From Escherichia phage EPIMRB01: 64,000 nt of DNA. The translations under genes and the position numbers were made by a program. Location: the sequence record PQ657784. One strand, written 5' to 3'. Shown here in pieces: positions 39,046-39,545 of this stretch; position 1 is the first letter of the stretch, and every line of letters starts with the position of its first letter. The notes below the pieces were generated by a model. That model was not told the DNA's origin and made no database searches. It worked only from the letters and a program-made list of their open reading frames with translations.

Positions 39046-39095
39046 TAATAGTATCACTACCTCATCAACGTGTAAACAACTTTGTGAAATTATTT
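39046..39095 (-). promoter_or_regulatory. T4-type early promoter
   Basis: Reverse complement reads AAAATAATTTCACAAAGTTGTTTAC-N17-GATACTATTAT; overlaps the 57B stop. Confidence 0.55.
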
Positions 39096-39545
39096 TAAAT
39101 CGTCTGCCCAATCGAGTTTAAGAGGCTCTTTGTATTCACGATCTAATACGACCGGAATTTGTACATCACCGCTAAATGATAAGGGTCCAACATTATAAGA
39201 CAATGTTATATGCGGTGTGTAATCATCAAAATCATGTGTAGCACCTAGTGCCCGCGCATACATGTGTCTACAGCGCAGATATTCAGAATCTAGCACAAGT
39301 ACAAGAGTCGATCCATCTTGTGTTTTCCATACTTCTAAATGCCCAGAAGAAGCTACTTCAAAACTTCCGCTTGATGGAACATACGGAACATTTACTCTTG
39401 AATAACATATGGTCGAATGAATTTTTTCTCTAGGAACTGGATTAGGAACACGTAAAGAGCGCTGGAGTTCTTCCAGCGCATCAAGTGTTAATTCTGAAAA
39501 CTTAGCTGCTACATAAAGACCCGTTGAAAAGTCTTTAAATTCCAT
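39090..39545 (-). CDS. 57B: gp57B; 2H-phosphoesterase-like (Acb1-type anti-CBASS phosphodiesterase family in T4)
   Basis: 151 aa immediately downstream of 57A; two H-x-T/S motifs (HSTI, HITL). Confidence 0.65.

Follow-up and report, generated by a model that had tools for sequence, protein, structure and literature searches.

Gene 57B of bacteriophage T4 was identified as Acb1 through activity-guided fractionation (Hobbs et al. 2022, Nature 605:522, PMC9117128), and its homologues in phage genomes are listed under other names. A 64,000-nucleotide stretch of DNA from Escherichia phage EPIMRB01 (sequence record PQ657784), hereafter called the window, carries an open reading frame (ORF) at the 57B position, and the question raised by this locus is what the encoded protein does. 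The record of Escherichia phage AUBRB02 labels the gene "hypothetical protein", while homologues of 57B go under the name "RNA ligase" in RefSeq and in phrog_755. The ORF is almost certainly acb1 (T4 gene 57B), encoding a metal-independent 2H phosphoesterase of middle to late infection that would act as an anti-CBASS enzyme. What was observed here is an intact gene, a product identical to the characterised T4 enzyme, the published functional residues, and conserved synteny. The features on which the discussion draws are collected in Table 1.

Table 1. Positions in the window of acb1, its motifs, its neighbours, and further genes considered in the text
Feature	Position	Strand	Basis
acb1 (gene 57B) CDS, 151 aa + TAA stop	39090..39545	minus	ORF list, T4 identity, PF23474, 7T26
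First catalytic H-x-T motif, H43-S44-T45 (T4 H44/T46)	39411..39419	minus	codons CAT TCG ACC, direct reading
Second catalytic H-x-T motif, H112-I113-T114 (T4 H113/T115)	39204..39212	minus	codons CAT ATA ACA, direct reading
C-terminal lid, window residues 144-151 (T4 145-152), including W146 (T4 W147)	39093..39116	minus	identical to T4
TAATG overlap, 57A stop and acb1 start sharing one A	39543..39547	minus	sequence and alignment to T4
Gene 57A (tail-fibre chaperone), upstream partner in the acb1 transcription unit	39545..39787	minus	PF17594 GP57, E=2.6e-50
TATAAATA, matching the T4 late-promoter consensus; within gene 1 and 356 nt upstream of 57A	40143..40150	minus	pattern match
Internal protein I (IPI)	38730..39017	minus	PF11634 "Nuclease inhibitor from bacteriophage T4", E=2e-53
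Vs.4/Acb2 cyclic-nucleotide sponge homologue	28198..28500	minus	Pfam Acb2_Tad1_hairpin, E=1.2e-19
Tk.4 macro-domain homologue	26030..26509	minus	Pfam PF01661 Macro, E=2.4e-8; phrog_335 "phosphatase"

An intact ORF identical to T4 gp57B

The acb1 ORF runs uninterrupted from an ATG start to its stop codon. BLASTP against the translated T4 gene gave 151 identities in 151 residues with T4 gp57B (Acb1, NP_049750.1), and the nine nucleotide differences from T4 inside the ORF are all synonymous (9/9). The original prediction had read this ORF as T4 57B/Acb1 and had placed HSTI and HITL motifs in a 151-residue protein at the 57B position; its coordinates, both motifs, and the 57B position agree with the present analysis, and the identity with T4 gp57B over 151 residues supports the reading itself. 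Because the match is to the founding member of the family, membership in Acb1 is settled. This is a known enzyme bearing the founding member's own sequence, it is ordinary for a T4-like phage, and it holds no new biology.

The T4 gene differs from the window gene in its annotated start. T4 57B is annotated at 152 residues, with one additional N-terminal Met, and its start region reads ATGATG where the window has ATAATG (39543..39548, minus strand); the first T4 Met codon is absent, and the second Met codon alone is therefore available in the window copy. A residue at position n in T4 stands at position n-1 in the window protein. This arrangement suggests that the second ATG, which overlaps the 57A stop, may be the functional start in the window phage and in T4 alike, and the overlap of stop and start suggests possible translational coupling between 57A and acb1. 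The loss of the first T4 Met codon is trivial for Acb1 function.

At the DNA level the ORF is 100% identical to that of AUBRB02 (OY979771.1), as is the entire 20 kb of the window that was tested (30000..50000), and it is 95-99% identical to several hundred Tequatrovirus genomes. The window is Tequatrovirus DNA from a close relative of T4. A tblastn search found 498 phage records that encode Acb1 at 99% protein identity or more, and related proteins were found in 1485 records, mostly from Straboviridae of Escherichia, Klebsiella, Acinetobacter, Vibrio, and Aeromonas. Since protein identity in the 498 records stays at or above 99% despite matching DNA that is mostly 95-99% identical, acb1 is evidently under purifying selection.

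Disrupted alleles of acb1 do exist among T-even relatives, for example through a nonsense mutation in Bas43 or an internal tandem duplication in Escherichia phage BYEP02, and the window copy might by the same token be a decaying or inactive allele, possibly one that escapes Panoptes-type guards. The chance of this is negligible, as the window ORF is full length, its product is identical to the active T4 enzyme, and all the differences are synonymous; the sequence refutes it. In BYEP02 (OR757454.1, 601..1133) the duplication is 77 bp long, covers roughly codons 23-48 with the first HxT motif included, and creates a stop codon that splits acb1 into two annotated ORFs; it could be either a natural inactivation like the Panoptes-escape alleles or an assembly error. 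Two antisense ORFs within the window acb1 (39248..39433 and 39262..39405, plus strand) were also considered and set aside as mechanical ORFs opposite a strongly conserved gene, with nothing to mark them as genes.

Family membership, functional residues, and the name RNA ligase

Two H-x-T/S motifs alone are weak evidence of function, because 16% of composition-preserving shuffles of the window protein have two or more such triplets. The case was therefore rested on full-length homology instead of motifs. The protein matches Pfam PF23474 (Anti-CBASS protein Acb1) over the complete profile (positions 1-144 of 144), scoring 202.7 bits where the cut-off is 27 (E=2.6e-60). A PDB search found the Acb1 structures 7T26 and 7T27 from Erwinia phage FBB1, with 68% of 141 aligned residues identical (E=4e-62). 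From this identity to the solved structure 7T26, a compact 2H phosphoesterase fold is predicted for the window protein; a single-sequence AlphaFold2 model was unusable (mean pLDDT 37.4, pTM 0.29).

In the published work on Acb1, the active site is an HxT/HxT tetrad formed by H44, T46, H113, and T115, and the H44A mutant is inactive; Y12, W74, F107, and W147 stack on the bases, E141 reads the N6 of adenine, and residues 145-152 constitute a lid that closes over bound cGAMP (PMC9117128). Judged by alignment, every one of these published functional residues is present in the window copy. H43, T45, H112, and T114 align with the catalytic tetrad of FBB1 Acb1, the four base-stacking residues are found at window residues 11, 73, 106, and 146 and the glutamate at 140, and the lid (window residues 144-151) does not differ from that of T4. 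FBB1 Acb1 shares with the window protein the HxT/HxT tetrad, Y12, E141, W147, and the C-terminal lid, but has F at W74, Y at F107, and a one-residue insertion after window residue 79.

Conservation was assessed in an alignment of window Acb1, FBB1 Acb1, and six homologues at 63-41% identity, namely those of Serratia WSPA, RB49, Aeromonas phage 25, Acinetobacter AC4, Vibrio D486, and UPEC03. Both His and both Thr residues of the HxT motifs are invariant in the 8 homologues, down to 41% identity, and so are Y11, the three residues Y-S-R that follow the first motif, and the P preceding the second His, which makes P-H-x-T invariant in all 8. The first motif aligns to H-T-T and the second to H-I-T of FBB1 Acb1. 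E141 (T4 numbering) is conserved in seven of the eight, and the stacking positions stay aromatic in the homologues in which they are present, the Aeromonas phage 25 protein stopping before W147. The original prediction had been made to hang on the catalytic His residues, either of which might have been lost in a proper alignment; both are kept relative to the FBB1 structure and to the distant homologues.

Under the competing name, the protein would be a LigT/2'-5' RNA ligase-type enzyme that ligates or repairs RNA, acting on RNA ends bearing 2',3'-cyclic phosphates, for example in tRNA repair. RefSeq applies this name to T4 57B itself and to many homologues, the window protein matches the "RNA ligase" family phrog_755 with E=5e-68, acb1 lies about 1.9 kb from a tRNA array, and the cellular 2H phosphoesterases of the LigT/2'-5' RNA ligase family (PF13563) share with Acb1 a pair of H-x-T/S motifs as well as the fold superfamily (2H). 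However, the substrates of the LigT family are RNA ends, whereas those of Acb1 are cyclic oligonucleotides, and membership of the window protein in PF13563 was rejected: Pfam 2_5_RNA_ligase2 reaches 13 bits, short of its cut-off of 27 (E=0.11), over residues 80-122 only, compared with the 202.7 bits for Acb1. The label is a name inherited from the 2H/LigT superfamily, and it conflicts with the demonstrated activity of Acb1, since the identical T4 protein cleaves CBASS cyclic nucleotides and is needed against CBASS (PMC9117128; 10.1101/2025.11.20.689424). With the published substrate profile also disfavouring it, an RNA ligase at this locus is highly improbable. The practical value of the result lies in annotation: the gene should be named Acb1, anti-CBASS cyclic-oligonucleotide phosphodiesterase.

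Predicted substrates and anti-CBASS role

The substrates, mechanism, and in vivo anti-CBASS role proposed for the window protein are those that published work on the identical T4 protein would predict. Acb1 would bind cyclic di- and trinucleotides with at least one adenosine, among them 3'3'-cGAMP, cUA, cAAA, cAAG, and 2'3'-c-di-AMP, and the C-terminal lid would shut over the ligand. With the two His/Thr pairs as catalysts, the adenosine 2'-OH would attack the 3'-5' phosphodiester bond, and the ring would open via a 2',3'-cyclic phosphate intermediate to give a linear product such as GpAp. With the second messenger destroyed, CBASS effectors (Cap4, Cap5, CapV, and others) would be left inactive and the phage could complete its replication.

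The role of the T4 enzyme in infection has been examined biochemically and genetically. Activity that cleaves cGAMP appears approximately 15 min into T4 infection, phage P1 is rescued from a CBASS operon of type III when T4 Acb1 is expressed, and a T4 strain deleted for acb1 was built and then plated on hosts with CBASS operons (PMC9117128). Transposon-library data for T4 show 57B/acb1 to be dispensable on K-12 but depleted on a CBASS-expressing host (10.1101/2025.11.20.689424).

The original prediction also had Acb1 cleaving the signals of Pycsar systems, which is wrong: Acb1 and Apyc1 are each specific to one system, Acb1 to CBASS and Apyc1 to Pycsar, and Acb1 does not block Pycsar signalling (PMC9117128). 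Apyc1 resembles Acb1 in being phage-encoded and in destroying a cyclic nucleotide that signals in immunity, but it has a Zn-dependent metallo-beta-lactamase (MBL) fold with an HxHxDH motif, acts on cCMP and cUMP, and has no structural or mechanistic homology to Acb1 (PMC9117128). The HxHxDH motif was searched for in the window Acb1 sequence, which has only five His residues, and is absent, and a Pfam search with the protein gave no match to any MBL family.

Few viral 2H phosphodiesterases are as promiscuous as Acb1, which can also be a liability: cA3 and 2'3'-c-di-AMP are among the signals it degrades, and Panoptes guard systems are set off when it is expressed from a plasmid. These observations accord with the view that in natural hosts the enzyme acts mainly on adenosine-containing cyclic signals other than those of CBASS, such as the cA3 of type III CRISPR or further cyclic di- and trinucleotides, with CBASS as one target among several. 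We consider this improbable, and it would in any case extend the anti-CBASS explanation and not replace it. The phenotypes of the deletion and transposon mutants described above are directly CBASS-dependent, cA4 is not cleaved by Acb1 (PMC9117128), and deletion of acb1 in T4 leaves type I Panoptes defence unchanged. Type II Panoptes restricts Bas35-37, in which acb1 is intact, and is escaped by Bas43, with its nonsense allele, and by acb1 escaper mutants of Bas35. T4 Acb1 without residues 145-152 ceases to trigger Panoptes (10.1101/2025.08.21.671373).

A related enzyme, viral 2H PDE-9 (PDB 9Q2G, deposited as "Anti-CBASS protein Acb1"), is a 2H phosphoesterase of the same structural group as T4 Acb1 and cleaves 3'3'-cGAMP (10.1101/2025.08.21.671373). 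In the PDB search the window protein showed weak but detectable sequence similarity to 9Q2G (E=0.0044). The lid of PDE-9 is N-terminal, whereas that of Acb1 is C-terminal, and in contrast to T4 Acb1, PDE-9 does not trigger Panoptes, because it cleaves 2'3'-c-di-AMP poorly (10.1101/2025.08.21.671373). For the window phage, an intact acb1 together with an acb2 homologue predicts resistance to many CBASS systems and also exposure to Panoptes-type guards, which are sensors of cyclic-nucleotide depletion.

Gene neighbourhood and other possible anti-signalling genes

The gene order around acb1 is that of T4: 4, 2, 3, 1 (dNMP kinase), 57A, acb1, ipI, trna.4-.2, and the tRNA array. Located directly downstream of 57A, with which it overlaps by one base, acb1 closes the 1-57A-57B block. 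Elsewhere in the Straboviridae, 57A and 57B are likewise neighbours in five further genera, represented by RB49, Aeromonas phage 25, Acinetobacter AC4, Vibrio D486, and Serratia WSPA. The TATAAATA motif inside gene 1 is found in T4 at the same distance from 57A, and it may serve as a late promoter for 57A-acb1, although this is only a lead, as the motif occurs 12 times over the whole window against 10.6 expected and is thus not above chance. Such a promoter would agree with the expression of T4 57B, reported as middle/late, and with the time at which cGAMP cleavage appears (PMC9117128). Scans of 38600..41300 gave 11 sigma-70-like sites where 9.2 are expected and 1 terminator where 1.0 is expected, again at chance level.

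On its other side, acb1 is followed after 72 nt by ipI, and a sigma-70-like site is located at 39076..39048. Since ipI is an anti-GmrSD gene, acb1 and ipI are two adjacent anti-defence genes, as in T4. Further downstream, the tRNA array (36364..37191, minus strand) comprises 10 genes, for Arg, Asn, Tyr, Met, Thr, Ser, Pro, Gly, Leu, and Gln, and that of T4 comprises 8 genes and the homing endonuclease segB. The genes of the window array are contiguous, with 0-10 nt between them, and therefore leave no room for segB. Between the array and the trna.2 homologue is an ORF of 171 residues (37278..37793, minus strand) belonging to phrog_2290, a family of unknown function; a Pfam search with this ORF gave no match, and the T4 annotation has no gene at the equivalent position.

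It had also been proposed that the window may hold several anti-signalling genes, including a candidate sponge locus and a macro domain. The Vs.4/Acb2 and Tk.4 macro-domain homologues are indeed present, which bears out half of the proposal; an anti-signalling role for the macro protein is hypothetical. A broader view would make acb1, ipI, vs.4/acb2, the Tk.4 macro domain, and nudE a co-regulated anti-signalling set in which members cover one another's liabilities, as Acb1 and Acb2 might in the triggering of Panoptes-type guards, and in which the macro protein would remove an ADP-ribose-derived immune signal. We regard such a set as quite unlikely. The sole pointer to it is the co-occurrence of the genes, which is common to T4, and acb1, Vs.4/Acb2, Tk.4, and IPI are all part of the normal T4 gene set.

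T4 vs.4 is acb2, and its homologue in the window is identical to T4 Vs.4 at 84 of 88 residues. The ORF listed for this homologue starts at TTG and is 100 residues long; translation probably begins instead at the ATG that forms ORF residue 13 (near 28464). The four substitutions are grouped at ORF residues 56-67, as seen in a comparison of the window and T4 segments that includes EALDNCEDCEFAK.
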